Shown: positions 2,340 through 18,013, counted from the stretch's first letter. The stretch is 64,000 bases of DNA from an uncultured Candidatus Saccharibacteria bacterium (GCA_964372755.1 CAYJQX010000002.1:10287-74286); one strand, 5' to 3'. A program made the numbers and translations. Notes: generated by a model from the letters alone, not told the origin.

Positions 2340-3290
2340 TTATTTTTTAAAAAACCGAGACAAAAAATTTGAAATAGTTTCTTTAATTCTTGACTGCACA
2401 TATTCAACTTTATTGCGAGTGTATGATTTTACCTCATTAATATTTTTTATGGGCTTGTCCTCGTTATTTTTTGCTGTTGAAGTGGTCAGATTTGTTTTAA
2501 TCGGTGATGTTTGTTTTGTTCCAGTAAAAATGTTTGTTATAGGTTTACTAACTGTTGAATTTTCTTTTTTAGATGGAACTTGAGGCGGTGATACAAGGAC
2601 AGGCTTATCTGCAATTTTTGGTTTTTGTCCGGAGAAATTTGTTGTGCCACCACTTCCTGAATTTTCATTTAACTGAATAATAATTGGTTTGATGTCTTGA
2701 GCCGTATTCTGAACTACGTCTGTTTTGCTTGGGGTGGTTGTAGTCTCCGGTTTTGCGGGGACGATTGGAGAAATTTTTTGCGTTCCGCCGTTTATAACAA
2801 TTTCTCCGTTTATCAGATCGGTTTTTATGGCTGTGCCAAGATTATTGCCAACTATTGACGGTCGTTCGGTAGAAAAATTAACTTTTATCGTCTTGCCATC
2901 TTTAGAAATTATTTTAAAACGCAAGGTTAAAAGCGTATCGTCTTCCTTGAATAATAATGGTTTTTGAGCGCTAGAGTCGTACCACAAAACAACTAATCCG
3001 GAAGCTGTGGAATTCATTGTGGCCGACGACAACTTCATAAACTCTAAATTTTGATATTGCAGAGCCTCGTTATCATATTCCAAATAAAGGGTCACGCTTC
3101 CCACGCTGGAATCGCCGAAATATTTTGCGTAAACGGGCAAAGTGGCAATTTCACCAAAATTACCCTTATCAGAAGCGATGGTAAGGGTGGGAATTTGTTC
3201 TCCCCTAACAGGGCTTGAGTAAGTTAGGTTAAACAAAAGAATTGATCCAACGCCAAAATAGATTATTTTTTTTGAATTTACCCTTCGCAT
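2340..3290 (-). CDS. Secreted protein with signal peptide and a Thr/Ser/Pro-rich C-terminal region
   Basis: Hydrophobic N-terminus, a low-complexity TTTPSKT... tail, no recognisable catalytic motif. Confidence 0.4.
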   Translation of the reverse strand: MRRVNSKKIIYFGVGSILLFNLTYSSPVRGEQIPTLTIASDKGNFGEIATLPVYAKYFGDSSVGSVTLYLEYDNEALQYQNLEFMKLSSATMNSTASGLVVLWYDSSAQKPLLFKEDDTLLTLRFKIISKDGKTIKVNFSTERPSIVGNNLGTAIKTDLINGEIVINGGTQKISPIVPAKPETTTTPSKTDVVQNTAQDIKPIIIQLNENSGSGGTTNFSGQKPKIADKPVLVSPPQVPSKKENSTVSKPITNIFTGTKQTSPIKTNLTTSTAKNNEDKPIKNINEVKSYTRNKVEYVQSRIKETISNFLSRFFKK

Positions 3291-3304: not shown

Positions 3305-6112
3305 CTAATTGTTATTCCAAGAATTGTTAACATCGCCTGTTTTCACTCCGATAAAATCTTGATTAGTTAAATCATCATTTAAATTCTCATAACGCCTTGC
3401 TTGTTCGGCATTGGTGTAATTGCTCGGGGTAAGAGTTAAATTCGAATCAAAGAATTTCCAATTACCGGCTGGGAAAAGAGTTGCGCTCCGCAATATATAC
3501 CTGACCATTGCGGTAATATCAAGGCCGACAATCGCGCCGTCGTTATCTGTATCAGCCGCTATTTTTTTGTAAATAGAATCAAAATCCTCTTTGCCCAAAA
3601 TATGGCGCACTGTTTTTACTATATCCAGTATGTTAACTTGGCTGTCGCCCCCGGACTTCTCGACCCTAACAGCGTAAGAGGCATTGCTTGGCAAGTCGTT
3701 AAATTGATAGAATCCATTTTGATCTGTTAGGACGTCTTTTAGGGCATTCCCCTGTTCATCCGTCAGAATTACTTTTGTATTTTTTATGGATTTGATTCCA
3801 TCATAATATTTGAGACGGCCGGAGATGGAATATTTCTCGACAATTGGTTCAACAACATTAAACGGTCCCCACTCTGTAAATGGCGATTCATTTCCTTGAT
3901 AATCTCGAGATGCCGTTTTTATTTTAAAACCATTTCCTTTTATGTCCTCTGAAATGTACCAAGGAAAAATTGCTTGATACGAATTGTTTATTTTAGTGCC
4001 GAGATATTGCCAAACAGATTCAAGGGCATTCCAGTACCAAAAATCAGATTCTTTTATGGCCACATTGTCGCTTCCTTCGGCGACAATATTAACCTCTCGT
4101 TGATTTTGCAACTCGTAATCTTCTTCACCGGAGATTTGGGTGAATGTGACTGTCGGCCTTATAACATCTGGTTTTAGACGGGTTAGGAGGCGGATATCAG
4201 TAGTGGTGGCGCCGATTGGCACATTGAATTTAGTGATCAAAGATTCATAGCCGGACGAGCTCACCCAGGCGGCATTTGAGCCGTTGCCCGTAGTGCTTTG
4301 GGAGATATTAAATCGGCCATCTTGATCGCTCTTGTCCCCATAACCATAAGCAAAAATACTCAAATTAGGACCAGGCTCATTGTTGACGGTTGTTTGCCCC
4401 GAAGCATAACCATTATATTTTGTCTGATCCGAGCTCATTGTAATGGTGGTATAGTCGGAAAGAAAAGTCACCGTGCCACCATCTAGAGACAACACGCCGG
4501 CTGTCACTTCATAAGTGGTATCCTCGGGAAATGAGGAAACAAAGGCGCCGTTCCAATCATTATTGATGCCAAGATAACTCCAATTAGTTGCGCCTACTGG
4601 ACGATATACGAAAACATAAAGAAGCCTTGCGGGATCGTCTTTTCGCGCCCAACGGATATTGACAGCGGGATTGCCGTTTATCTGGTATTTCTGCGCGACA
4701 TAATAAGTCGGCAGGCCGGGCAAGCCGTTTACGGAGGGAGTAAAATTAAACTCGCGTTCAATCCAGTTGTCATCATAATTTGCGTCATTGGGCTCTTCCA
4801 AATAAAACTTGATCTGCGTTGGCCCGACAAAACTCGAGGTATCAGACTGATTAAAATTAAGATTCACGCTTTGGCCTGGCGCAATAGCTCCCAATCCAAA
4901 AGTGGCCAGATTTTTTGACTCGCGCAAAAAATTATCAACAAAATGATAAAGAACGATGTTATCGGCTTGCTTGTAGCCTTTATTCATTACGGTCAAACGA
5001 AAAGTAGCTGTTTCCCTAGTTTGGGAAGCGCCGATGTTTTGCAAATCTTCAATAACAAGATTCGGTGTGGCGAAAGATTTAAGCGCTTCCGTAGTATGTA
5101 AAATAGAATTACCAAAACTTCCGTCAAAATTTCTCTGTCTTTTGATGGACGCAAGAAAGGTTTTTGCTTTAGCGCTTTCAAAATCGTAAAGATTGAAAAT
5201 ATTGACCAATCTAATGTTGGCAAACACGTCGCTAGATTCTTCTCCGACATTAAGCGCTTGTAAAATTTCATTAATTTTGCCCGACACTAAAATGGATTCA
5301 GTATCTGTTCCCGCTCTTATTTGAGAAAATGGTTTCAGTCCTTGCGCTATTTTGTAAGTTGAATAATTATTTCCAATTTCGGAGCTAATTCCTTTTAAAA
5401 CAAAGAAGAGGCTACCAGAGAAGGCGTTGCCGGAATTATAATTGCCGGCAGAGAAAGCAAGAACTGCTTCCATGGTGGTTTGCAAATCGCTTTCATGCCA
5501 AGTGTCGAATCCGATACCGCCCGAGTTATCTTGCGAGGCCTTAAGCTCATCCAGTAAGGGAGTGGCATTTTGCCCTTCGGCGATCAAAATCCTTGCCTTC
5601 AAAGCTTTTTCCCTGTTGTTTGCCGGGGCGGTGTTGAGCAGATATTGCAAAGCCGAATTAAATTGCCCGCTTTCAGTTTTGTTGTATTCAATTAATTGAA
5701 AAACCAAACCGGCAGTTGTCTCGTATTTATTAATTTCGCCAAAACTACCATCTTCGTTTTGATTTTGCGATAAATAATAAAGAATATAATCGGCCGTATT
5801 TTTTTCTATACCCGCGTAATTTGCAATCAGTGGCGTAAGTGACTCCCCGCTTAGTTGCCTATTTTGGCGAGCGGGCGCTTGTGTTTTTGATTCGAGCTCC
5901 ATTATTTGCACGGAGCTTTTTCCGTTCGTTTCCACCGAAATACTCTTTTTTACTTTCAACTTTGGTGCTGAATTTAAATCAATAACATTATCTATTTGCA
6001 TGCCTTGCTGATTTTCCTCTGCTCCGGCCGGCAAAGCTAAAACAGGGACGATTTGTGATAAAATCATTCCTACCAACACCACCCCTTTAATTTTTTTCTT
6101 GATGGCTAACAT
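3305..6112 (-). CDS. Large secreted surface protein (935 aa) with dockerin-like and carboxypeptidase-regulatory-like C-terminal modules
   Basis: Signal peptide. C-terminal DTDNDGAIVGLDITAMVRYIL is a dockerin-like Ca-binding repeat. SGRLKYYDG...VILTDEQGNALKDVLTDQNGFYQF is a Cna-B/CarbopepD_reg-like beta-sandwich. Confidence 0.5.
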   Translation of the reverse strand: MLAIKKKIKGVVLVGMILSQIVPVLALPAGAEENQQGMQIDNVIDLNSAPKLKVKKSISVETNGKSSVQIMELESKTQAPARQNRQLSGESLTPLIANYAGIEKNTADYILYYLSQNQNEDGSFGEINKYETTAGLVFQLIEYNKTESGQFNSALQYLLNTAPANNREKALKARILIAEGQNATPLLDELKASQDNSGGIGFDTWHESDLQTTMEAVLAFSAGNYNSGNAFSGSLFFVLKGISSEIGNNYSTYKIAQGLKPFSQIRAGTDTESILVSGKINEILQALNVGEESSDVFANIRLVNIFNLYDFESAKAKTFLASIKRQRNFDGSFGNSILHTTEALKSFATPNLVIEDLQNIGASQTRETATFRLTVMNKGYKQADNIVLYHFVDNFLRESKNLATFGLGAIAPGQSVNLNFNQSDTSSFVGPTQIKFYLEEPNDANYDDNWIEREFNFTPSVNGLPGLPTYYVAQKYQINGNPAVNIRWARKDDPARLLYVFVYRPVGATNWSYLGINNDWNGAFVSSFPEDTTYEVTAGVLSLDGGTVTFLSDYTTITMSSDQTKYNGYASGQTTVNNEPGPNLSIFAYGYGDKSDQDGRFNISQSTTGNGSNAAWVSSSGYESLITKFNVPIGATTTDIRLLTRLKPDVIRPTVTFTQISGEEDYELQNQREVNIVAEGSDNVAIKESDFWYWNALESVWQYLGTKINNSYQAIFPWYISEDIKGNGFKIKTASRDYQGNESPFTEWGPFNVVEPIVEKYSISGRLKYYDGIKSIKNTKVILTDEQGNALKDVLTDQNGFYQFNDLPSNASYAVRVEKSGGDSQVNILDIVKTVRHILGKEDFDSIYKKIAADTDNDGAIVGLDITAMVRYILRSATLFPAGNWKFFDSNLTLTPSNYTNAEQARRYENLNDDLTNQDFIGVKTGDVNNSWNNN

Positions 6113-6710: not shown

Positions 6711-7493
6711 TTAGAATTTAGCTAAGTTATCAGATTCTTCCCCGTTTAATCCAATAATGAACTTGCCGCCGTTTTTGGCAATATCCGACAGGGTCTTAAT
6801 CCGGCGCAAGCTCAATAAAACCGGATGCTGTTCCAGTAGTTTTGCCTCATCAATTTCATCCTGAAACTGCATTTTACGCTTTTCCATCTCAGTCTGCGCT
6901 TCTAACAGTACTCGTTCTTTTACGGAGATAATGTTAATCCTAGCCGCTTCCGCTTCTTTTCTGGCTTTGATAAGTATGGCCTCCGATTCGCGCTCTACTT
7001 CCAGCACCCGATTCATAATCTCACGGAGGTTGCCTGGGAACACTAAATCTTTCACATCGGCGCGGATAATTTCTACTCCATAACTACTGGCTGAATTTTT
7101 GACATCGTCTCTCACGGCATCGGAAATTTCATTACGATCACTTAAAATATCGTCAAGGTTGCGATTAGCGAGGAAACGACGCGCCGCTAATTGTACATCT
7201 TCATAAATACGCTCTTCGTAGGAAACCACATTATGTATGGCCACCTCTGGATTTGTAATTTTGTAATACACGAGCAAGCTAATTCGAATAGCCACTTTAT
7301 CTTTGGTTAAAATCTCTTGCCCCTTGATAATTAATGACTGTTCGCGTCTATCAACAAGTTTTATTTCCCGCTCAACTTTATCAAAAAACATTCTACGAAT
7401 AATGTGTTTGCCGGGTTGTAAAACTTTCTTAAATTCACCATCTTCATAGAGCAAACCCACAAAAGAATGAGGAACAATTTTTTCGGTTTTCAT
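6711..7493 (-). CDS. SPFH/band-7 (stomatin/HflKC-like) domain protein
   Basis: Core KDKVAIRISLLVYYKITNPEVAIHNV...YGVEIIRADVKDLVFP, followed by a coiled-coil C-terminus. Confidence 0.7.
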   Translation of the reverse strand: MKTEKIVPHSFVGLLYEDGEFKKVLQPGKHIIRRMFFDKVEREIKLVDRREQSLIIKGQEILTKDKVAIRISLLVYYKITNPEVAIHNVVSYEERIYEDVQLAARRFLANRNLDDILSDRNEISDAVRDDVKNSASSYGVEIIRADVKDLVFPGNLREIMNRVLEVERESEAILIKARKEAEAARINIISVKERVLLEAQTEMEKRKMQFQDEIDEAKLLEQHPVLLSLRRIKTLSDIAKNGGKFIIGLNGEESDNLAKF

Positions 7494-7516
7494 ATTTTTA
7501 CAATTAATTGTTAATT

Positions 7517-7641
7517 ATTTGTCGGGTACCGACCGCTTGCCAAGTTGTGGGACGGAGAAAGCAGACGATCAGGCTTTAATCTAAATGAAAAGCTTGATTA
7601 ACTTTTCCCGCCACAGGTTTGCGTGGTACCCGACAAATAGC
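7517..7641. repeat. 125-bp element closed by a perfect 14-bp inverted repeat (ATTTGTCGGGTACC / GGTACCCGACAAAT) with internal helices. It is either a MITE-like repeat or a small structured RNA.
   Basis: Read directly. Outer 14-bp stem, inner GTGG..CGG/CCG..CCAC helix, apical ATCAGGC/GCTTGAT helix. It sits upstream of the SPFH gene. Confidence 0.3.
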
Positions 7642-7726
7642 TAATAAAATTATTTTAAAGACTTAATCCACTCTAAATCTTTGATTGATTTTGGTATTTC
7701 ACCTTTCTTTAAAGCGAATTTGTAGA

Positions 7727-7847
7727 AAAGGTGTCAGGAACCTTTTTTGGGACTTTCTCGTTTTTTGGTTAAAAATTCTTTTTACTTTTTCCATAAATAC
7801 TGTACTGATATATATTTACTTTAAAAAATGGTTCCTGATACCTTTAA
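7727..7847. mobile_element. MITE-like element copy A (~120 bp) with TIRs AAAGGTGTCAGGAACC / GGTTCCTGA(T/C)ACCTTT
   Basis: Near-identical full copy at 17105-17224. Solo TIR-like ends at 23218-23234 and 25572-25597. No coding capacity. Confidence 0.55.
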
Positions 7848-7891: not shown

Positions 7892-8293
7892 TTATTTTAA
7901 AGACTTTATCCAGTCTAAATCTTTGATAGATTTTGGTATTTCACCTTTCTTTTTGGCAAATTTTCTTTTTAATTTATTAAACAGGCTTTTATGCTCTTTA
8001 TATTTTTTGTTATCTTTCTTGTCATAGGTATTACTTTTAATGACCCCTGGGGTACAATAATATCCTGGATAATTTATCCAGAGAACTGAGGCAGTAGAGC
8101 TGTAAGTCAATCCGAAATTGGTTTCAAATAGTTCTTTTATAAATGGAAATCTTATATACATATTGGTTCCTTTTATTACAAACTTACCATTAAGATTTGA
8201 TGAATCAAATTCTGTTTCATAACCCAACTGTTGAATATAATCAATAATATCCTTAGCTGAATATTGTTCGAAATTGTAACTAAATGTTCTCAT
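7892..8293 (-). CDS. Hypothetical protein (133 aa). Its 3' end is duplicated upstream of the MITE.
   Basis: ORF only. The last 65 bp of the gene (7888-7952) are repeated at 7646-7710. Confidence 0.35.
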   Translation of the reverse strand: MRTFSYNFEQYSAKDIIDYIQQLGYETEFDSSNLNGKFVIKGTNMYIRFPFIKELFETNFGLTYSSTASVLWINYPGYYCTPGVIKSNTYDKKDNKKYKEHKSLFNKLKRKFAKKKGEIPKSIKDLDWIKSLK

Positions 8294-8321: not shown

Positions 8322-9053
8322 GATAATGGGGTCAGTCACCATTTATCTTCTGGGTCTCCCCACTCTACGTAAAGACTGCTCTAGTTTAAATTTTTTCACT
8401 ATATTATTGCGCCACTCATCTACCCCAAAAGGAATATTTTTAATAATCGACCCTCTTATTATATCAATCTCCTCATCTTTTTGTGATTCGTTAAGGTAAT
8501 GTAAATAATCCGAGGGTTCATCAATAGGCCAAGAACTTAAAATTTTCTTTTGACTTGTGTTACCAAAAATCCTTCTCCACGCACTAGACCATTTCCATTT
8601 TTGCGCCTCATCTACTAATTTGGCTCGCTCTGGATTTCTTTCTACATATCTTACGAGAGAAAGAAAATAAAAATCTGCCTGACAAATAAATGATTTATAT
8701 CTTCCTTGATATAAATGGCCATGACCAATAGTTCCCTTTTTTGTGTGCCAGCGTCTGGTATGAGTATTGGTCAGCCAACTCATGAACAAAGATAAATCCT
8801 TGTCATTCCTAGGATACAAAATTAAATGCCAGTGATTAGGCATAATGCAGTATGCAAGAAGTCGCATATCAAATTTTTTAACAGCCTCTTCTAAAATAGT
8901 TTCAAAGTCTTTGTAATCTTGATCATCATAAAAAATCTTCAAGCGATCATTTGCTCTGTTGATAACGTGATAGATTTCATCACCAACATTTATTCTTTGC
9001 ACTCTCGACATATTTTTATTATATCCTAATCAATGGTGGCTGACCCCATTATC
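8322..9053. mobile_element. RAYT/IS200-like unit: transposase gene bracketed by inverted 21-bp repeats GATAATGGGGTCAG(T/C)CACCAT
   Basis: Read directly from both flanks. There are no DDE-type long TIRs, consistent with HuH-family hairpin ends. Confidence 0.5.
8343..9011 (-). CDS. IS200/IS605-family (Y1, HuH) tyrosine transposase, RAYT-like
   Basis: HuH motif MPNHWHLIL and a catalytic-Tyr region YQGRYKSFICQADFYFLSLVRYVERNP. Flanked by 21-bp inverted repeats (8322-8342 and 9033-9053, 20/21 match). Confidence 0.6.
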   Translation of the reverse strand: MSRVQRINVGDEIYHVINRANDRLKIFYDDQDYKDFETILEEAVKKFDMRLLAYCIMPNHWHLILYPRNDKDLSLFMSWLTNTHTRRWHTKKGTIGHGHLYQGRYKSFICQADFYFLSLVRYVERNPERAKLVDEAQKWKWSSAWRRIFGNTSQKKILSSWPIDEPSDYLHYLNESQKDEEIDIIRGSIIKNIPFGVDEWRNNIVKKFKLEQSLRRVGRPRR

Positions 9054-9102: not shown

Positions 9103-10155
9103 CTATATCAATATCACTGGCTCGCACAGAACATCAACCGGAGCAATGCTTTCCTTCTCAAAAAAATCATAAGCTTTTCTGGAAATAATAAGGTGGTTGT
9201 TGTCAGTTCTGAAAAAATCCAATCCTTCGGGAATATTTTTCTTTATTAGGTAAAGCTGGGAAGTAAGTAAGGGAAATTCTTTCCCAGTGATAGGACATTT
9301 CCTGTCTTTAGTTGTGTAAACACTTGCCTTCCTTAAGGAAAATCTGCCTTTTATCTCTTCTACACCCTTGATTTGCTCTACATCAATGGCCATCCATTTT
9401 GTTAGGTTTTGATCTGTTGGGGGTGTGAATTCACCTATCAAACGTGCGTCTCTTTCTGTATCGCCATGTTTCCTGTTCAAATTGTATAAACTTGACAACA
9501 GTCTTTCTCTTTTTCCTTGTTCCGCCTCATCTTTCGTCAAATAGAACATCGGATGATGTTCATCCAGTTCACAAACTAATTCTTTAGCAATATTTAATAA
9601 GTCTTCTCTTTTTCCTCTGTTGTAATATGAGTATAAATTGTTATCGGAAGAATAAATTCGGATAAACTCCAAACCTGGCAATCCACTATTCATGATTACT
9701 GAAGCTACTGAATGATGTGCATATAAAATACCGTCTAAGTCAAAACCTAATAGCATAAGAATTTTACCGGATTTTTTTCCTACATTAATTTGTGAATTGG
9801 GATCTGTTGTAAAATAAGACGAACAGGCTTCTTTTAAGTCACAGGGATTAAAAATCGCAGTACTATGCAAATATAATATGTAATAAGGGCTATTTTTTAA
9901 ATGAGGATTTCTGTATTCCTTAAATCTATAGTCCAACTGGGAATGATAAAATAATTTATATTGTAAATTATTGTAAGTGTTCTTTTTCTCATCTAAAAAC
10001 CCAATCATTTTAAAAAGTTTGTCAAAAGTGCTCTTTATAAATGAATAATTATAATCTGGTTCACGGGAGAGCAAAGCAGGATTAAACTGCATTAAATCAT
10101 TTAAAATTTTTGACCTGTCAGAGCCGTAAACACCGATATTGATTACATTAAGCAT
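9103..10155 (-). CDS. Hypothetical protein (350 aa) immediately downstream of the nuclease-tipped giant protein. It is a candidate immunity or partner protein.
   Basis: Position only (33-bp gap, same strand). No recognisable motif. Confidence 0.35.
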   Translation of the reverse strand: MLNVINIGVYGSDRSKILNDLMQFNPALLSREPDYNYSFIKSTFDKLFKMIGFLDEKKNTYNNLQYKLFYHSQLDYRFKEYRNPHLKNSPYYILYLHSTAIFNPCDLKEACSSYFTTDPNSQINVGKKSGKILMLLGFDLDGILYAHHSVASVIMNSGLPGLEFIRIYSSDNNLYSYYNRGKREDLLNIAKELVCELDEHHPMFYLTKDEAEQGKRERLLSSLYNLNRKHGDTERDARLIGEFTPPTDQNLTKWMAIDVEQIKGVEEIKGRFSLRKASVYTTKDRKCPITGKEFPLLTSQLYLIKKNIPEGLDFFRTDNNHLIISRKAYDFFEKESIAPVDVLCEPVILI

Positions 10156-10187
10156 ATTTTATTTACTGTTTATTTCCAATACTAAAC

Positions 10188-13100
10188 TCAATTACATGGG
10201 ACAAAATTAGCAAAACCAAATCTTGCCTTGATTGGTCCATCCACTGCATGCGCCCATTGGTGTGCGCCACACGGCAAGGGTAAAATGTTGTCCAGCTCTT
10301 TTTCGAATTCAGGCGCCTTTGATCTAGGTATTAAATGGTGTAAATGCATAGTATCGCCCGTACCTTGAAATTTGGGCGTAACGCCACTCAAATCCATTTT
10401 TAATATATCAGCATCACTAAATAATTCTCTTATTCTCGAATATCCAGCCGCCTTTTTCCAATAATCAGTTCTTAGGCTGTCAAAGTTGTTAAATTGCTTG
10501 CCTTCTCTACTGAATTCTTTAATTATCCATTGGTGCATGTCTTCAATTATTTCAAATTCCGGCTTGGTTAACTGGCCGCCCTTTACAAAATCATTTGAGA
10601 GAGCTATCCGACTAAACCCAAGCTTGGTGGCTGCCGCTTTAATAATGTTTTCTGGTCTAGAAAGCACAAAATTAATATCATCCTGGTTATGGTAAGGTTT
10701 TTGGACTGATTCGTAAAAATCTATTCGATTTTTAGGATTTGATATTATAGATCCTTTAACTCTTTTCCATAACGTGTCTCTGTCTAGATTTTTCTCAATC
10801 TCCTTAATCAACTTATTTTTCCCCAATTTAGAGGCTTGGGAAGAAGCGCCAAGACTATTCAATGCTTTAGTTCCGGCTAAGTTAATAACTATTCCGGAAG
10901 TTTCTAAAGCCAAGTTAGCCCCCAATTTCCCGCAGTAATAAGCCGGCGGTTTATTGTCTAGAAGTGTTTCGTCATCTGAAGCGCAGGCTTGGTAAACTGG
11001 CGCGTTGTTATAAGCGGCTAGGGATATTGTGCCGGCTGCAAATACCCAGCCCACAAAAGGGAAAAATTTAACTGATGTTTTTATGGCAATGGATTTACTT
11101 TTTTTTACTGCTACAAATTCCATTGCCTTTTTTATAACTTCGCCAATGGCTATACCAGACGCGAAGTCAACACCCATGCCAATGTAATCGCGTTCGCGAA
11201 AAACATCTAATACTCCCTCCACCACCTCATCGTGATTTTTTCCTTCAAATGCTTTCAATACAGCGAGAGTTTGGGAAATGTCATCTATTTGAACCACGTC
11301 ACTTCCGAGCGTATTTCGTAATTTTTTTCCGTTTTCAAAATTTTGGAAAACAGCCCCAGAAACAGTTCCCGAAATTTGTGGGTCATCATCGGGAAAGCCC
11401 ATGCCACTTGTCCCACCCAATTCATTGTGTTTTTCGTAAATTTTCCCGAACACAACATAGGCGTCGTCAGGCCACAAAAATCTGTCTATCTTGTATATTG
11501 CGCCGTTTGTAAAACGTTGAGAATCACCATCCGTGCCGGTCAGAGTGTATGTCGCTGTCGGGACCATACTACTAGTTGGGTATCCTAAAAGCGCAGGTGT
11601 ATATTGGTTGGTTATTTTGTCGCTACTGACGTATTTGTCATAAATTTTACCCTCAATAACTTGCGCCACTGTTTGTTGTGGATTATAAACAACTAATTTC
11701 TTCTCTCTGCTATTTTCATAAACATAAGTCCCCCAATACGGAAATATTTTCCGTATTGTTACATTGGTGCCGGATACTTTGCTGGCTATTTGAGCGCTAA
11801 TAAAGTTGTCTCTTTGCCAATAATTGTAATTATCGCTACTACTCTTAAAATAAGCACCGTTGGTGGCAACAATAAAAGAATGGTCGTGTGAGCCAAATTG
11901 ATATGGCCCGCTTTCGTTGTCGTTCATGCATGGCTTGCCGTGTTGAGCTAGATTCCATCCTGGCGCGATATTACCACCAACGATCTGATTGTAAGTGGTA
12001 ATTTTAATACTACAGAGGATATTTTTATCCGAATTATCCTTGTAAATAAATTTACTTGGCCCGTTGTTAAATTCGTAAGCCAATTGCGGTTTACTTACGC
12101 TATTGTTCCATGTGGACAACGTATATTGATTAGTCGTCCACCCGCCATTTTGCTGGGTCTGCTCCCCGATGGCGTAGGTGCCCGTCCACACAGGGTCCAA
12201 AGAGACGTAGAAGATGCCTGTCCAGCTTCCGTTTGTTACAAATTTGTTGGGAGTAACAACGGTGTTGCCAGCTTCCACGTCTGCGCGCATATTTTGTTTG
12301 GTGTTTTCGGAGAGCGCCAAAGTATCAATCAAGCCCGCATTGGCTGAAGTGATTTTGTGGACAGTGTAGTCCTCTGGGTGAGCGTAAGCGTATTGCAGGC
12401 CACGAACGGTGGAAATACCATCCAGCCCGGCAATATCCGTAAATATTTGAGCTTCTTGGTATGAGGCATTTAGGGCGAAAAGCAAGCGATAATCTTTTCG
12501 GTGATCTTTGTAATTACCACGATTGGAATAATCGTTTATCAAAGTCGCGGCGTCTAGGCTCAAACCCTTGAAATCAAATGTGGTGGGCACGCCACCAATA
12601 CTATTTAAAATGCGATTTTGCGTTACCACGGCGCGGGAAAAACTGTTGATCACTTTATGATCTAACGATTTTTCCAGCAAAGAGCCGGAGGTTTCGATAT
12701 TAGTTAAATAAGTTCGCGCCAAACCAACATTTCCCTTGAGCAGTATTTTGGAAGGAGTGTCAGATTGCGTATCAGGTATCGTTTTACCCAAAGAAACAAT
12801 AATGCCCTCGTCGTTGCCGGCAATGGAAAATTTTTCACTAATATATTTTTGCACTTCGCCTTGCTTTAAGGTAAACCGCAAGATCAGGTCTTTACCGACA
12901 GATAAAGGCGAACTTTCCGCCAAAACAGAATTGTCGGCTTCTAAAACCGCCTTGATATCAACCAATGTCGCGGGCGTGTAAGCCAGTCCGCCGAATGATT
13001 CAATAGTAGCTTTGTCGGTATCGCTCGCGCCGACATAAAAAAGGTTTATGTCCTTGTTGTTAATTTCGTTGCTCCAAAGAGCGCGCTGTAAAACAGGCGT

Positions 13101-14804
13101 TTGATCGTCTAGAAGCTCAATGACGACTTGCCTACGCTTATTGTTCGGCAAAGTTGACCAGTTTTCCGGATGGATAGTGGCGGAATTGCCAAAAATATAA
13201 GGCAATTTTGGCGGGAGAATGTCGTAATTTTTTGCGGTGATGGATCGAGTGGATTGATAAGTTGAGTTTCTAATGTCCTTGCCTGTGGTGCCAAACAAAT
13301 CTGTTGCGTACTTATCAATTGGATTTAAAGTGCCGTTGTATTGCAAATAATTATACCAAAAACTCTCTGTATCAAAGTTGACTGTGTCGGAGACAATTTC
13401 TTTTGGCTCGTAGTCGTATGGTTGTAAAATCGGGTCAAAGAAAATCCATTTCTTCTCTGGAAAGGCCGACAGTATATTTTCTAAATCTTGATCAGACTGG
13501 GCGACGGATAAGTTAAGATTATTGGGAACATTCGCGCCACGCTCATCGTATTCGTAGAAAATTTGCGGTATTACCCATTCCAAAACCAAATCGTTGACTT
13601 GGCTGAAGTCAGCATCGTCTAAACTTCCTCCTAAATTTTCTCCGGTAAGAAAAATAGGAATGTCGTTACTGGCTAGCGCGGCATAAACTATTTTGCTGTC
13701 ACTCACTCCCAGCAAATCTTTTAATCGTGTCATGGAAACAAGCGCTAGTTGTTTGTGGTAGCGAGCTGGTATGCCGGCTGAGCGCAGGAGAGCGATAGTT
13801 AAAGAGGATATATCAACGTCGTTGCAAACACGTTCGGCGAGACATCCAACGCTTCCTTTTTTCGCGTCATAGTATGGTTCGTAAGCAATATTGTTGCGGA
13901 TATAGTTGTAAATTTTAACCGGATTATTGTCTAAAGTTTTAGCCAAATCGGCAATGGTATCGTTTATGATAATTTCCCCATTGTCTTGATTTAAATCAGT
14001 CAATTTAGGGTAATCGATTAAGGCGGGAGAGGACGGTATAGGCGGTTGATTTACGGATAGCGGAGTTTTGCCAGAGTTTGAAGAAAAGGCAGGTTGTGTG
14101 GTTGTTTTTGGCGTAAATGTGAAATTATCCAAACTTTGCACGTTTATATCATTTTTTACAAAATCAAAACTGCCGGGATTTACGGGTTTAGCCAAATCGC
14201 TATCGGAATTAGAAGATGGTTCTTCGCTCGGGCTTAACGAGCTTGGGGAAAGGTTTTTATCTTTTAAGGTGGAAGGCTCTTCAGCAACTAGGAGGCTGTA
14301 GTAGCTATTTAAAGTCTCAAAATATAAATTTCTTTTGCTTCCCGATATCCCTAAATCATCTAGTTGTTTATTTTGGGAAACAATAAAAGCGTCCCATTTG
14401 GTCAGAATTCCAGCTTTGATTTTATCTCTGGCCTCCGAACTCAAGATTTCATTGTTGTCATCAAGGCCCAAGCGAAAAGCATTAAATTCTCGAATAAATT
14501 CGCTATAGGACATTGTATTGGACACACTATCGGACATTGGTGAGCTGGTCGTAGCAGGTGCTGTTTCTAGGCTAATTTCCGGTGTAGGTAAAGATTCGGG
14601 ATTTTTGCCATCATCAACAAAAATACCCGTTTGCGCGGGTATTTTAGGATCGTTATCAATAAGCGTGTCAGATTCGGTCGAAATCGAACCGCTAGATTCG
14701 GATTGGGCTAAAACTATAGCTAAGGGGTAAAAACTTGAGAAAACCAAAGACAGAGATAGGTAGAATGCAATAAATCCCTTTGTTTTTCCTCTAAGAATAA
14801 GCAT
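10188..14804 (-). CDS. Giant secreted protein (1538 aa) with a transglutaminase-like cysteine-protease core and a C-terminal HNH/EndoVII-fold nuclease of the LHH type, in a polymorphic-toxin-like architecture
   Basis: Signal peptide/TM at the N-terminus. Transglutaminase-core motif GSVGCLAERVCNDVDISSLTIALLRSAGIPARY. C-terminal MHLHHLIPRS...ELDNILPLPCGAHQWAH follows the HH...N...HxxxH pattern of HNH nucleases. Confidence 0.55.
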   Translation of the reverse strand: MLILRGKTKGFIAFYLSLSLVFSSFYPLAIVLAQSESSGSISTESDTLIDNDPKIPAQTGIFVDDGKNPESLPTPEISLETAPATTSSPMSDSVSNTMSYSEFIREFNAFRLGLDDNNEILSSEARDKIKAGILTKWDAFIVSQNKQLDDLGISGSKRNLYFETLNSYYSLLVAEEPSTLKDKNLSPSSLSPSEEPSSNSDSDLAKPVNPGSFDFVKNDINVQSLDNFTFTPKTTTQPAFSSNSGKTPLSVNQPPIPSSPALIDYPKLTDLNQDNGEIIINDTIADLAKTLDNNPVKIYNYIRNNIAYEPYYDAKKGSVGCLAERVCNDVDISSLTIALLRSAGIPARYHKQLALVSMTRLKDLLGVSDSKIVYAALASNDIPIFLTGENLGGSLDDADFSQVNDLVLEWVIPQIFYEYDERGANVPNNLNLSVAQSDQDLENILSAFPEKKWIFFDPILQPYDYEPKEIVSDTVNFDTESFWYNYLQYNGTLNPIDKYATDLFGTTGKDIRNSTYQSTRSITAKNYDILPPKLPYIFGNSATIHPENWSTLPNNKRRQVVIELLDDQTPVLQRALWSNEINNKDINLFYVGASDTDKATIESFGGLAYTPATLVDIKAVLEADNSVLAESSPLSVGKDLILRFTLKQGEVQKYISEKFSIAGNDEGIIVSLGKTIPDTQSDTPSKILLKGNVGLARTYLTNIETSGSLLEKSLDHKVINSFSRAVVTQNRILNSIGGVPTTFDFKGLSLDAATLINDYSNRGNYKDHRKDYRLLFALNASYQEAQIFTDIAGLDGISTVRGLQYAYAHPEDYTVHKITSANAGLIDTLALSENTKQNMRADVEAGNTVVTPNKFVTNGSWTGIFYVSLDPVWTGTYAIGEQTQQNGGWTTNQYTLSTWNNSVSKPQLAYEFNNGPSKFIYKDNSDKNILCSIKITTYNQIVGGNIAPGWNLAQHGKPCMNDNESGPYQFGSHDHSFIVATNGAYFKSSSDNYNYWQRDNFISAQIASKVSGTNVTIRKIFPYWGTYVYENSREKKLVVYNPQQTVAQVIEGKIYDKYVSSDKITNQYTPALLGYPTSSMVPTATYTLTGTDGDSQRFTNGAIYKIDRFLWPDDAYVVFGKIYEKHNELGGTSGMGFPDDDPQISGTVSGAVFQNFENGKKLRNTLGSDVVQIDDISQTLAVLKAFEGKNHDEVVEGVLDVFRERDYIGMGVDFASGIAIGEVIKKAMEFVAVKKSKSIAIKTSVKFFPFVGWVFAAGTISLAAYNNAPVYQACASDDETLLDNKPPAYYCGKLGANLALETSGIVINLAGTKALNSLGASSQASKLGKNKLIKEIEKNLDRDTLWKRVKGSIISNPKNRIDFYESVQKPYHNQDDINFVLSRPENIIKAAATKLGFSRIALSNDFVKGGQLTKPEFEIIEDMHQWIIKEFSREGKQFNNFDSLRTDYWKKAAGYSRIRELFSDADILKMDLSGVTPKFQGTGDTMHLHHLIPRSKAPEFEKELDNILPLPCGAHQWAHAVDGPIKARFGFANFVPCN

Positions 14805-14933: not shown

Positions 14934-15194
14934 TTATTTTTTATAAACATCGTGATCTCCTACTGCCAAAAGAACAACGGTTTGCTTTGAGAGATAGTTA
15001 AAAACTATGCGTGTTTTGTAATTTACAGAGAAACTATATCTACCTTTTAATCTGCCTTTAAGTTTGTGGACTTTGAGTAATTTGTGATTTTTAACTTCTT
15101 TAAATAAACCAATTTTCTCAATAACCTCATCTTGCAAATCTTTTCCCAAAACATTAAGTTGTCTAATAAAACTGGGCTTATACGTAACGTCCAT
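14934..15194 (-). CDS. RelE/ParE-family type II toxin
   Basis: 86 aa. ...LKGRLKGRYSFSVNYKTRIVF...VLLAVGDHDVY is the RelE/ParE signature. Paired with the upstream RHH gene. Confidence 0.7.
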   Translation of the reverse strand: MDVTYKPSFIRQLNVLGKDLQDEVIEKIGLFKEVKNHKLLKVHKLKGRLKGRYSFSVNYKTRIVFNYLSKQTVVLLAVGDHDVYKK

Positions 15195-15205: not shown

Positions 15206-15409
15206 CTAGAATTTCTTCATTAGTTTTTTTAGATCTCCGCGAATATTTGGCTCTTGCTCCGCTTTTATCACTGCCATAACAGCTTCTTCTTCAGCCAGCA
15301 TTTTTAGGGCATGACGAACCACCTGGGCCTTGTTGGAACCATTTTTTTTGGCAAGTCTTTCTACTAATTCTACCAAATCAGAGGTAAGCGGAACAGATAA
15401 TGTGGTCAT
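15206..15409 (-). CDS. Ribbon-helix-helix (CopG/ParD-like) antitoxin
   Basis: 67 aa, with an N-terminal RHH-like segment. 11-bp gap to the RelE-like gene. Confidence 0.65.
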   Translation of the reverse strand: MTTLSVPLTSDLVELVERLAKKNGSNKAQVVRHALKMLAEEEAVMAVIKAEQEPNIRGDLKKLMKKF

Positions 15410-15863
15410 ATGGTAAAATCATATTACATTATCATATAAAAAGTCAAGGCGGACATATTATACAATATCCTTTGTAGCTTTCATGTTTGCTAATACTAGC
15501 ATTTTACAAAAAGAGAAGCAACTGCAATACTTTTGCTTCAATTTAATTTTGATTTGCTTCTTTCTTCCCTAATTCCCCTATTGGTAGCTCTATAAAGGAA
15601 GCACTTTCTTCGTAGAACTGCCCACAGGACAAACGACTCAAAAAACCCTTGTCAAAGAAAAAAAGGCTTGAAAAACTAGAACCATTGTCCTCAAGACAGA
15701 ATTGTGGTTAAATAGTAGCCGGAGAAAGAAACCACTGTGGTTTCTTTTGATCCAATGGCTCTTTAGCAAAACGAAAAGGAAGCGCTAAGCTATGGCAAGA
15801 TCGCCAGAAGAAATCAAGCCACGCCAGTAACGACAAGGCACAAACAGAAAAGGAGAGAAACTC

Positions 15864-16186
15864 ATGAAAATTAAATTGGCAATCGTTGGCGTTGGAAATT
15901 GTGCCAGCTCGTTCATCCAAGGCCTCGAATACTACAAGCACGTTGACGAAACGTGGCCATCTGTATCGGGACGGGACTCATGCACAACAACTTCGGCGGA
16001 TACATCATTCGTGATATCGGCGTGGTTGCCGCCTTTGACGTGAATGGCAACAAAATCGGCAAAGATGTATCCGAAGCGATCTGGACACTGCCGACCAACT
16101 CGCGTAAGTCCGCCGACGTTCTTCACAAGGACGTTGCGGTAAGCGCGGGGTTCCTCGGTGACGGCATCGCTCCGCACATGCGGTGA
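15864..16186 (+). pseudogene. myo-inositol-1-phosphate synthase fragment, frameshifted near codon 30 and truncated at ~107 codons
   Basis: Frame 1 gives MKIKLAIVGVGNCASSFIQGLEYYKHVDET (canonical MIPS N-terminus). The protein continues in another frame as GLMHNNFGGYIIRDIGVVAAFDVNGNKIGKDVSEAIW.... There is an AGGAG Shine-Dalgarno 8 nt upstream. The region is GC-rich relative to the flanks. Confidence 0.6.
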
Positions 16187-16335
16187 ACCTTTTCCTCTCG
16201 CTCCTCCCATCCACTCGCGACACGCGGTCCGTACGAAACTGGCATTCTCTCCGTTAGCCATTTGGCAATCGTTGTTTTACCGGCGTAGCTTACGCCTTCA
16301 AGACAAATCAAAGTATTCACGGCTCACCTCCACTT

Positions 16336-17007
16336 TTAAAGCTTGGTCGAGCAATTGGGGCCCACCGTGTCCGCCTTACCGTCTCGAATGATTACCACCG
16401 GCTCCGTACCGTATTTTGTGAACGTTCCGTCGGTAACATAACCGCCAGCTTTCTCTGGGATAGCTATAACGCGCTTCCGTAGATCGTCGGAGAGTTTCAT
16501 TACGGATTCAAGATCTTCTGCTCTGTAATGACAAAAGATTGAGTAACCATTAATGATTCTCAAACCTACGGCTTCCGTCTCGCCAAGTTGATTTGCCTCC
16601 GGTGCCGTACGAATATCCTCGCCGAGAATGATCGCTCCGGCGCTTCCTCCGTAGAGCGGAATGCCTTTCAGCGCCATCTCACGGAGATAGCCATCAAACC
16701 CGGCCGTGCGTATTTCCCGAAACAGTTTTACCATATCGCCGCCGCCGATATAGACCCCTGCGATCTCGTCAGTCGAACGACGAGGACGCAAGTCGTCCCA
16801 CATTTCAATGGCGACGACGCCAAGCGGCTCCATGACCGAGCGAAACCACTCCAGGCATGCATGGTACGGCTTTGAACGCATGGCGTTCGGGATGTAGACG
16901 AGCGGTTTTGCAAGATCGAGCAGTCTGACAAACTGCTCGTCGAGCGGTCTTGACTCTTCTGCGTTCCCGCCGCCTGCGAGAAAGATGTGGTTGGTTGCTG
17001 TGTTCAT
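16336..17007 (-). CDS. Peptidase S51 family (dipeptidase E/cyanophycinase-like) protein
   Basis: IFLAGGG...VYIGGGDMVKLF...LYGGSAGAIILG motifs. About 50% GC, versus ~36% for the surrounding genome. Confidence 0.5.
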   Translation of the reverse strand: MNTATNHIFLAGGGNAEESRPLDEQFVRLLDLAKPLVYIPNAMRSKPYHACLEWFRSVMEPLGVVAIEMWDDLRPRRSTDEIAGVYIGGGDMVKLFREIRTAGFDGYLREMALKGIPLYGGSAGAIILGEDIRTAPEANQLGETEAVGLRIINGYSIFCHYRAEDLESVMKLSDDLRKRVIAIPEKAGGYVTDGTFTKYGTEPVVIIRDGKADTVGPNCSTKL

Positions 17008-17104
17008 GGGTTTCTTCTTTTGATGTCCCAGAGCCGCATGATGGGGATAGTTCGTTTCCTAACTACTCCGCGCAGGAACTCTTCGTGCAGAAAAGGTGTG
17101 CAGA

Positions 17105-17224
17105 AAAGGTGTCAGGAACCTTTTTTTGGGCTTTCTCGTTTTTTGATTAAAAATTCTTTTTGCTTTTTCCATAAATACTGTACTGATATATATTTACTTA
17201 AAAAATGGTTCCTGACACCTTTAA
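17105..17224. mobile_element. MITE-like element copy B
   Basis: Near-identical to 7727-7847. Its right TIR supplies the stop codon of the CYTH-like ORF. Confidence 0.55.
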
Positions 17225-17535: not shown

Positions 17536-17766
17536 CTAAATCAAGGAAATAAAATCTTCAGGCGCAATATTAATTTCTCGCAAAATCTGGCGAAGCAGAC
17601 CACGTCCAATATCTTCACTTGCATGACTGGGTACCAAGGTTGTACGTCCGTCTTTATGACGAAAGAATATATGAGAGCCTTTTTGTCTTACTTCCACAAA
17701 ACCCAAAAGAGATAAGGCTTTTATAACTTGCCTTGATTTTAACATAGGTAATTTATTGGGAGACAT
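17536..17766 (-). CDS. hicA: HicA-family mRNA interferase toxin
   Basis: LKSRQVIKALSLLGFVEVRQKGSHIFFRHKDGRTTLVPSH is the HicA signature. Confidence 0.75.
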   Translation of the reverse strand: MSPNKLPMLKSRQVIKALSLLGFVEVRQKGSHIFFRHKDGRTTLVPSHASEDIGRGLLRQILREINIAPEDFISLI

Positions 17767-17767
17767 T

Positions 17768-18013
17768 TTACACAGTCATTACCTCCAAACCAACAAAAGA
17801 TGGGTTGTAGGCAAAACTTTTTATTCTTGCTTGATATTTTTTATCAATTAAAGCCACCTCCAGACAAAGACGAATGGCATCTTTAGTTTTTTCAGCCAAC
17901 CCTTGCATAGTTTTAGCTTGGGTGTGACAACCTGGCAAAGCAGGCACGGAAGCAACAAAAAAACCATCCTCGTCCCGTTCTATTATTACTTTGAATTCTT
18001 TTTTAGCTTTCAT
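17768..18013 (-). CDS. hicB: HicB-family antitoxin
   Basis: IERDEDGFFVASVPALPGCHTQAKT is typical HicB (UPF0150). 1-bp gap to hicA. Confidence 0.7.
   Translation of the reverse strand: MKAKKEFKVIIERDEDGFFVASVPALPGCHTQAKTMQGLAEKTKDAIRLCLEVALIDKKYQARIKSFAYNPSFVGLEVMTV

Follow-up and report, generated by a model that had tools for sequence, protein, structure and literature searches.

A predicted Sec-dependent polymorphic toxin-immunity locus with a colicin-type DNase tip in a bacterium of the Candidate Phyla Radiation

A stretch of 64,000 nucleotides from an uncultured Candidatus Saccharibacteria bacterium (GCA_964372755.1, CAYJQX010000002.1:10287-74286; this whole stretch is called the window in what follows, and positions are counted from its first letter) carries on its minus strand a gene for a protein of 1538 amino acids (10188..14804), which is followed on the same strand by a gene for a protein of 350 amino acids (9103..10155). 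An earlier note on this DNA, made from the sequence alone, had read the pair as a giant secreted protein tipped with a nuclease and a candidate immunity gene. The question raised by this locus is whether a bacterium of the Candidate Phyla Radiation (CPR, or Patescibacteria) makes here a toxin with an exchangeable tip together with the protein that protects against it, or whether the two genes serve another purpose, in the attack on a host, in the export of the tip or in the upkeep of the cell envelope. Little is known about how these ultra-small and mostly uncultured bacteria fight each other or attack their hosts. Our best explanation, which we consider a likely one, is that a CPR bacterium encodes here a polymorphic toxin-immunity system dependent on Sec, with a colicin-type DNase as the tip of the large protein and the 350-amino-acid protein as its candidate immunity protein.

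A scaffold family with exchangeable tips

The large gene was defined as a toxin gene by the combination of a conserved scaffold and a variable C-terminal tail. A homologue search with its product identified 15 full-length relatives of 1248-1633 amino acids, which match over 52-86% of the query, sixteen full-length homologues being 32-46% identical, and the precomputed C-terminal Pfam domains of these relatives differ from one to another. In the family alignment the invariant columns end at P1138 and the tails past this residue are unrelated, with mean identity falling from 40-76% in residues 301-900 to 5-19% past residue 1150. The first ~1160 residues are conserved, and the last ~300-400 are swapped between relatives. 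A scan of one genome per species located the scaffold family in 33 further genome loci, the window's own genome not being among them. The titles of these loci name Magasanik-, Komeili-, Uhr-, Peregrini-, Peri- or Gracilibacteria or a "Patescibacteria group"; the label "uncultured Gammaproteobacteria" on part of the records was treated as unreliable. The nearest scaffold relatives of the window are Magasanikbacteria-like, and by this measure its bearer would probably be related to the Magasanikbacteria. To judge from these records the distribution of the scaffold is essentially confined to CPR lineages, and the earlier view that a nuclease-tipped giant surface protein would be unusual in a genome of this kind had to be given up, since nearly all of the 33 further loci are titled as CPR.

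BLAST clustering sorted 36 tips into 11 clusters, so that the family has at least 11 tip types. Among the tails of the relatives, matches above the Pfam cut-offs were obtained for AHH (43.6 bits), EndoU (30.5 bits), NAGPA (47.8 bits) and a barnase-type ribonuclease (32.2 bits), and several tails match no known family. Polymorphism of the C-termini among relatives, which had been put forward as a check on the toxin reading, is thus borne out both by the end of the invariant columns and by the number of clusters. Between scaffold and tip lies a pre-toxin linker, for which two main classes could be recognized, with nine loci fitting neither class. The linker of the window (residues 1166-1394; 10623..11309, minus strand) is of class a, which is shared across nine loci bearing tips of three different clusters, and tip clusters 0 and 1 were each found on both linker classes. 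Because linker class a bears different tips and tip clusters 0 and 1 sit on both linker classes, the protein is modular in three tiers, namely a family-wide scaffold, an interchangeable pre-toxin linker and an interchangeable toxin tip.

The gene downstream of the toxin changes along with the tip. In all 33 of the loci that could be assessed, an open reading frame (ORF) on the same strand starts between -17 and +80 nucleotides from the toxin stop codon, and comparison of the loci in pairs showed that the type of this downstream gene tracks the type of the tip across the family: 25 pairs have the same tip and the same downstream gene, 40 the same tip and different downstream genes, two have different tips and the same downstream gene, and 494 differ in both. 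For tip cluster against downstream-gene cluster the Fisher odds ratio is 154, and after addition of a locus from a metagenome (L046) none of 20000 label shuffles reached 25 pairs alike in both (mean 3.1, maximum 13); both statistics ignore phylogeny. Over scaffold residues 886-1156 the loci nearest to the window are L016 (42% identity), L018 (37%) and L015 (35%), all of which have other tips and other downstream genes. Locus L011, at 31% identity to the window in these scaffold residues, reaches 44% in the tip, and its downstream gene belongs to the same family as that of the window. Because the nearest scaffold relatives differ in the tip and the distant L011 shares it, tip and downstream gene appear to have been exchanged as a unit, independently of the scaffold, and by this comparison their co-variation is not simply a matter of shared ancestry. 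The claim that the 350-amino-acid gene stands in the position typical of an immunity gene is in keeping with both results, the constant presence of a same-strand ORF directly after the toxin and its co-variation with the tip.

These are features by which polymorphic toxin systems have been recognized (PMC3482391). The conserved N-terminal and central region followed by unrelated C-terminal toxin domains is found in this family, as is the downstream gene that changes with the toxin domain; the immunity function itself is predicted.

The DNase tip and the 350-amino-acid protein

The tip of the window's toxin (residues 1395-1538; 10191..10622, minus strand) was assigned from profile and homologue matches to the colicin/pyocin-type HNH (beta-beta-alpha-Me) DNases. 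The string MHLHHLIPRS...ELDNILPLPCGAHQWAH from which the earlier note had proposed a nuclease is present at residues 1486-1519, and the putative catalytic motif L1488-H-H...N1506...H1515...H1519 (10248-10343, minus strand; from sequence and alignment) is complete, with L1488, H1489, H1490, N1506, H1515 and H1519 all in place. The L-H-H, the Asn and the two further His residues are invariant in the three aligned tips (window, L011 and L012), and the N-x8-H-x3-H spacing is identical to that of colicin E7 in the profile alignment. In colicins E7 and E9 the His residues bind the metal, the second His acts as the general base and the Asn braces the loop.

When the last 144 residues were scanned alone, Col-Pyo_DNase (PF21431) was matched with 20.6 bits (E = 5e-4), below the cut-off of 27, and in a scan of the full protein the same family was matched by residues 1434-1490 with 17 bits, again below the cut-off. 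The tip alone scored 14.9 bits against LHH (PF14411; cut-off 23.3), with the matched stretch (query residues 30-59) lying upstream of the LHH motif, and 13-14.2 bits against Pfam HNH, below its cut-off. A word-indexed homologue search with the 144-residue tip gave no match, and neither the 1538- nor the 350-amino-acid protein matched any family in NCBIfam. A sequence search of the PDB with the single tip returned as its best matches the DNases of colicin E9, colicin E7 and pyocin S8, with E about 0.2. With a profile built from the three tips, all 30 of the 30 PDB matches were DNases of colicins E2/E7/E9, of pyocins S2/S8/AP41 or of klebicins, the best being colicin E7 (35.9 bits, E = 7.5e-8; profile positions 18-112 against chain residues 17-114). 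Scanned singly, the L011 tip reached 37.2 bits against Col-Pyo_DNase (profile positions 30-119 of 124) and 28.3 bits against LHH, above both Pfam cut-offs, and the L012 tip reached 23.5 bits against Col-Pyo_DNase (cut-off 27). Next to L011, identity to the window's tip is 31% for L012 and 45% for L046; the tips of L011 and L012 were reached through homologues of the 350-amino-acid protein, and that of L046, the one locus recovered in this way, through a scan of JGI metagenomes with the tip alignment. On the strength of these alignments we concluded that the tip is a divergent colicin/pyocin-type HNH DNase, catalytically intact by its residues and with affinities to Tox-LHH, in a family which seems to sit between the ColE7-type and the LHH-type models. 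The proposal of a Tox-LHH-like tip stood insofar as the LHH motif is there and the L011 tip passes the LHH model, and gave way insofar as Col-Pyo_DNase fits the tip better; of the match to an HNH-family hidden Markov model which the earlier note had named as a check, the part that was obtained comes from the three-tip profile and the L011 tip, the window's tip alone remaining below threshold.

The downstream gene (9103..10155, minus strand), a candidate cognate immunity gene by its position and its homologues, has a predicted cytoplasmic product. It is separated from the toxin stop codon by a spacer of 32 nucleotides, so that its ATG begins at the 33rd base past the stop, as had been stated for a same-strand ORF 33 bp downstream. 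The spacer holds no promoter- or terminator-like site, the promoter and terminator scans being at chance level, and the protein has no hydrophobic segment, signal or transmembrane stretch. A word-indexed homologue search with it returned only the protein itself; in an exhaustive HMMER search of 1.84 billion representative proteins there were three homologues, 42%, 39% and 33% identical. One of them (P0028) begins 5 nucleotides past a gene whose product has this DNase tip at its end, another (P0029) shares one base with a gene of that kind, and the family follows this DNase tip in the window, in L011 and in L012. Conservation of the 350-amino-acid gene independently of the tip, which would speak against a role in immunity, was not what we found, as two of its three homologues stand directly after the same tip and the third (P0027), on a contig of 1.5 kb, may be an orphan.

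The C-terminal ~100 residues of the family resemble Gmx_para_CXXCG (PF09535) in four of four members (19.8-23.7 bits, E from 3.5e-5 to 5.6e-4, cut-off 25), and in the same region one member also matches Imm43 (PF15570; 17.5 bits, E = 0.0036, cut-off 25) and Imm11/DUF1629 (PF07791; 12.3 bits, E = 0.1, cut-off 22.1). This likeness is limited to the C-terminal part and its scores are all below the cut-offs; the N-terminal ~240 residues match no family. Among the HNH-fold toxins, Tox-AHH is listed in PMC3482391 with both Imm11 and Imm43 as its immunity families, and Tox-HNH and Tox-SHH are listed with Imm11; a protein downstream of an AHH toxin has been reported to match Imm43, Gmx_para_CXXCG and DUF1629 together (PMC8163844). 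In PMC3482391 none of these families is listed together with a ColE7-type tip.

Several points weigh against reading the locus as a DNase toxin with its immunity gene. The window's tip lies under every Pfam cut-off and, by the curated test applied to its own sequence, is not a member of Col-Pyo_DNase, so the family assignment rests on the three-sequence profile and the homologue; moreover, the positions which we take to be the equivalents of R96 and E100 of colicin E9, in our own reading of the alignment, are not conserved in the tip. The similarity of the 350-amino-acid protein to Imm families is below threshold and amounts to a lead, not to membership. Neither Pfam nor PDB-sequence comparison matched the protein to the Im7/Im9, SUKH or SuFu types of immunity protein, the PDB sequence search giving noise only, and an AlphaFold2 model of it (mean predicted local distance difference test, pLDDT, 67.7) had no Foldseek match in the PDB (best E = 0.37). 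A scan of JGI metagenomes with the alignment of its family recovered no locus, and P0027 has no upstream ORF within 194 nucleotides. With Im7 and Im9 at ~85 amino acids, a protein of 350 is large for this function. In L046 (JGI contig Ga0210019_1033518, 1-3040, with the same scaffold) a tip of the same family is followed by an unrelated ORF of ~108 amino acids, which has no Pfam match and is not a homologue of the 350-amino-acid protein, and which seems to represent a different family of immunity proteins against this fold. Every locus with this DNase tip has the same scaffold family, and the cassette was never seen on another scaffold. Lastly, the export and toxicity of the protein, the DNase activity of its tip and the neutralisation of that tip are predictions, and so is delivery of the tip by this scaffold.

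The size of the 350-amino-acid protein relative to Im7/Im9, its lack of a significant family or fold match and the unrelated small ORF of L046 could also be accommodated if the protein were a tip-specific accessory, for instance a chaperone for export, an adaptor or another subunit of the toxin, with immunity encoded elsewhere or not needed. We regard such a role as quite improbable, given that a position directly after the toxin combined with co-variation with the tip is the defining context of immunity genes, that the protein is without signal or transmembrane segment, and that all four members of its family resemble Gmx_para_CXXCG, one of them also Imm43/Imm11, in the same C-terminal region. 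The association of one toxin family with several unrelated immunity families, as L046 would require, is documented in the tables of PMC3482391 and in PMC13392607. A candidate immunity protein remains the preferred reading of the 350-amino-acid product.

Architecture of the large protein

The ORF of 1538 codons begins, as the earlier note had described, with a hydrophobic N-terminus of the signal or transmembrane type. A basic n-region (R5, K7, K9) precedes residues 10-35, which form the most hydrophobic segment of the protein (Kyte-Doolittle 1.83) with a hydrophobic core of ~20 residues, and this is followed by V-L-A/Q, kept in the family consensus. From hydropathy and the consensus, residues 1-33 (14706..14804, minus strand) are predicted to be a Sec signal peptide or an N-terminal signal-anchor, and VLA/QS would be the cleavage site (between A and Q). 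Residues 34-279 (13968..14705, minus strand) make up an acidic stalk rich in Ser, Pro and Asp (isoelectric point 4.2, 16% Ser, 8.5% Pro), recognized by its composition and its low conservation, with a mean identity to homologues of 10-21%.

The stalk leads into a transglutaminase-like domain (residues ~280-480; 13365..13967, minus strand; from Pfam and alignments), in which residues 293-350 match Transglut_core (PF01841) with 35.4 bits (cut-off 23; profile positions 16-75 of 108). The string GSVGCLAERVCND...LLRSAGIPARY, put forward earlier as a catalytic-Cys motif, is present at residues 317-349, and its Cys residues are off the catalytic position. In the HMMER alignment with the transglutaminase-like protein of PDB entry 3isr the Cys of 'GVCRDFA' stands opposite D329, which is invariant in the family, and hhalign alignments to two distant homologues give the same register; the His of their 'EHIW' is opposite the invariant W410. 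C321 and C327 were considered as the catalytic Cys and discarded, since two independent alignments put the canonical Cys at D329; C327 corresponds to the canonical Gly position, at which three of 16 homologues have Gly. No conserved His was seen near the canonical His position in the homologue alignment, and the Asp position of the Cys-His-Asp triad is mostly retained. With D329 and W410 in place of the canonical Cys and His, the domain is, by these alignments, probably non-catalytic, and the earlier claim of a catalytic motif needs correction.

A core without an assigned fold follows (residues ~481-1054; 11643..13364, minus strand; defined from the family alignment). Its residues 751-900 are the most conserved stretch of the family (mean identity 58-68%, the upper value being that of residues 751-800), exceed most of the transglutaminase-like region in conservation and contain the motifs RAVVTQNRILN and YAIGEQxQQNGGWTTN. 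No Pfam family matched the core, and the PDB matches of an AlphaFold2 model of residues 545-1165 (pLDDT 62, predicted template modelling score 0.46) were meaningless, with template modelling scores of about 0.1. Residues ~1055-1165 (11310..11642, minus strand) consist of LGFP repeats, a putative cell-wall-binding module: LGFP (PF08310) is matched by residues 1073-1134 with 32.1 bits (cut-off 22), and a profile of scaffold residues 545-1165 matches the LGFP region of Corynebacterium PS1 (6swz/6sx4) with E = 2.4e-9 and three repeat matches. The class a linker between these repeats and the tip matches no Pfam family; it has a hydrophobic helix at residues 1244-1265 (window 11010-11075, hydropathy 1.53) and the conserved cysteine motifs AC..D and YYCGK. 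Transglut_core, LGFP and Col-Pyo_DNase are the only matches in the full-protein Pfam scan (E<=1), in which the scaffold domains of CdiA/CdiB, Rhs/YD, LXG/WXG toxins of the type VII secretion system and MafB (TPS, FHA, RHS, LXG, DUF1020) were absent, and among the scanned neighbours there were no genes for scaffolds of the CdiA/CdiB, Rhs/YD, type VII or MafB kinds.

From this architecture a course of action may be proposed. The 1538-amino-acid protein would be exported by Sec, and the LGFP repeats together with the non-catalytic transglutaminase-like domain would hold it on, or bind it to, the cell wall. On contact with a neighbour the pre-toxin segment, which has a hydrophobic helix and may form a disulfide, could help the DNase tip across the target membrane, where the tip would degrade the DNA of the target cell. 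In the producer, and in kin with the same cassette, the cytoplasmic 350-amino-acid protein would bind and block the tip. We know of no type V, type VI or type VII secretion system in CPR bacteria.

A scaffold far more conserved than the tip, at 68% mean identity in residues 751-800, might also belong to an enzyme or adhesin of the cell envelope that remodels the wall, the HNH-like motif being a degenerate, non-toxic remnant. In many CPR genomes the family does have the look of a core gene: a gene for a HisKA_7TM kinase lies upstream of the window's cassette and a Band_7 gene downstream, as in L005, and Band_7 also follows in L001, so that the chromosomal site appears to be conserved while the content of the cassette changes. 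We nevertheless hold an envelope enzyme to be highly improbable. Its transglutaminase-like domain would be without the canonical Cys and His, the tip retains all of the catalytic and metal-binding positions of the colicin DNases, invariant among its homologues, and the tips of the relatives that pass the Pfam cut-offs are bona fide toxin domains. We therefore continue to regard the protein as a polymorphic toxin.

Neighbouring genes, related systems and implications

Further downstream, at 7892..8293 on the minus strand, a gene for 133 amino acids was found by tblastn to be homologous to genes which directly follow tips of cluster 2, a restriction-endonuclease-like type, in L036 (E = 2.8e-13) and L034 (E = 1.8e-5). 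As the whole window contains no tip that would match it, this gene is an orphan immunity-like gene, and its product may protect the cell against the different, restriction-endonuclease-like tip of neighbours. Beyond it in the downstream direction, at 7653-7721, a fragment match of 23 amino acids (E = 0.008) may be what is left of another copy. Orphan modules were also observed elsewhere in the family. Locus L009 has two stand-alone EndoU ORFs (4651-5226 and 7222-7803), and L003 has a 344-amino-acid ORF (11997-13031) with an N-terminus like the tip of the main toxin and a C-terminus like the adjacent immunity protein, together with a 51-amino-acid remnant of an EndoU-type immunity gene (11657-11812). 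Orphan cassettes, a further hallmark of polymorphic toxin systems, are therefore represented by the window's 133-amino-acid gene, the EndoU modules of L009 and the tip-immunity ORF of L003.

The orphan gene bears on the question of the target. An episymbiotic CPR cell might inject the DNase into the bacterium that serves as its host, whether to kill that cell or to salvage nucleotides from it, and the downstream protein would then only prevent self-intoxication before export. CPR genomes are reduced and their owners host-dependent, as is generally known (PMC13622651); wall-binding modules joined to a nuclease tip, in a family that spans many CPR lineages, would suit such a life. On the whole we think a purely host-directed effector unlikely, because diversification into 11 or more tip types, with a downstream gene that goes with each, is the expected signature of conflict among kin or competitors that can carry such toxins, and because an immunity-like gene whose cognate toxin is missing from the window has no role in it. 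The two uses are not mutually exclusive, and a polymorphic toxin-immunity system remains the reading that we prefer.

Between the 350-amino-acid gene and the orphan lies a gene for a Y1 (IS200/REP-associated-like) tyrosine transposase-like protein (8343..9011, minus strand; Y1_Tnp 69 bits), which scores 63 bits against REP_Tyr_transpos, below the NCBIfam cut-off of 80. A Y1 gene 35% identical to it is found in L009 (6232-7173), between the two orphan EndoU ORFs. Y1 transposases were considered as a general feature of these loci and dismissed, being present in two of ~45 loci only, and for the same reason a role of theirs in the turnover of cassettes is speculative.

Other features of the surroundings are recorded here in their own right. 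Just upstream of the giant gene there is a pair of genes for a RelE/HigB-like protein (sub-threshold) and a ribbon-helix-helix protein (14934-15194 and 15206-15409, minus strand), and also upstream a HicA and HicB pair (17536-17766 and 17768-18013, minus strand), which is the second type II toxin-antitoxin pair. Between the kinase gene and the toxin locus there is a GC-rich island at ~15400-17200 (0.46 against 0.33-0.40 in its neighbours); it contains a gene for an S51 peptidase (16336-17007) along with a large number of spurious ORFs that overlap one another, and may be an insertion of foreign DNA. Two adjacent genes for surface proteins (2340-3290 and 3305-6112, minus strand) encode, in one, a cohesin (39.5 bits) and, in the other, CarboxypepD_reg and a type I dockerin (24.3 bits, slightly above the cut-off); the combination of cohesin and dockerin is unusual for a CPR genome.

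WapA of Bacillus subtilis, with its partner WapI, is exported by Sec and associated with the wall of a monoderm, and carries CWB2 wall-binding domains and RHS repeats. Functionally it is the closest analogue of the system described here. Its wall-binding repeats, its long scaffold and its variable nuclease at the C-terminus, with an immunity gene behind, have counterparts or candidates in the window, and its signal peptide and its independence of a specialised secretion system have predicted ones; the scaffold of the window has no sequence homology to WapA, which is a tRNase toxin (PMC5566331). Closer in domain composition are the polymorphic toxins with an N-terminal inactive transglutaminase domain followed by RHS repeats that were described by Zhang, de Souza, Anantharaman, Iyer and Aravind (2012; PMC3482391, section 19, and Table 1, row 'T2SS/Sec-dependent'). 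Shared with these are the degenerate transglutaminase-like domain, the variable C-terminal toxin and, as predictions for the window, the signal peptide, the downstream immunity gene and an export by Sec alone. Here, however, there are no RHS/YD repeats, their place being taken by the core of ~570 amino acids, the LGFP repeats and the family-specific linkers, and the distribution is essentially CPR-only, unlike that of the classical type. Three weak homologues from our searches (P0019, P0021 and P0024), with RHS repeats and Transglut_core, look like this classical type.

As for the tip, the homology to the DNases of colicins E7/E9 and pyocins S2/S8/AP41 ('Tox-ColE7' in PMC3482391) extends over nearly the whole DNase domain, and includes the F-x-x-F-D-x-x-R-x-x-[FY]-W helix as well as the metal-binding motif LHH...N-x8-H-x3-H. 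The tip differs from the colicin DNases by one extra residue between HH and DN, in our reading of the alignment, and sits on a CPR surface protein instead of a colicin scaffold for translocation and receptor binding. Its 350-amino-acid partner, unlike those of the colicin and pyocin systems, has no similarity to Im7/Im9, Imm-SUKH or SuFu.

Taking the observations jointly, one might go further and see in the scaffold family the main contact weapon of the CPR/Patescibacteria, lineage-wide and working by an undescribed route in which a Sec-exported and wall-tethered protein would use a module of its own, consisting of helix and cysteine pair, to carry nucleases across the membrane of a neighbour. 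Its targets could include both hosts and rival CPR cells, Y1 transposases might aid the turnover of cassettes, and the 350-amino-acid protein would found a two-domain immunity family for colicin-type DNases. This extended picture is offered tentatively, as we find it rather doubtful in its entirety.

No published description of this scaffold family was found in the searchable literature, where the sole related report, PMC6031116, mentions in passing that one Saccharibacteria genome encodes a toxin of the RHS type. That an inactive transglutaminase domain, an HNH tip and an immunity gene can go together in a polymorphic toxin system was known before, so the advance lies in scope and in new parts, which are the scaffold, the linkers, several of the tips and the 350-amino-acid immunity candidate. 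A known design of bacterial weapon would be extended in this way to a new protein family that is common across CPR lineages. The family offers a ready catalogue of candidate toxins and immunity proteins, several of the tips being without a known family, and, for CPR populations, a marker by which kin discrimination and conflict between strains could be followed, as well as a testable model of how a toxin may be delivered without a specialised secretion system.

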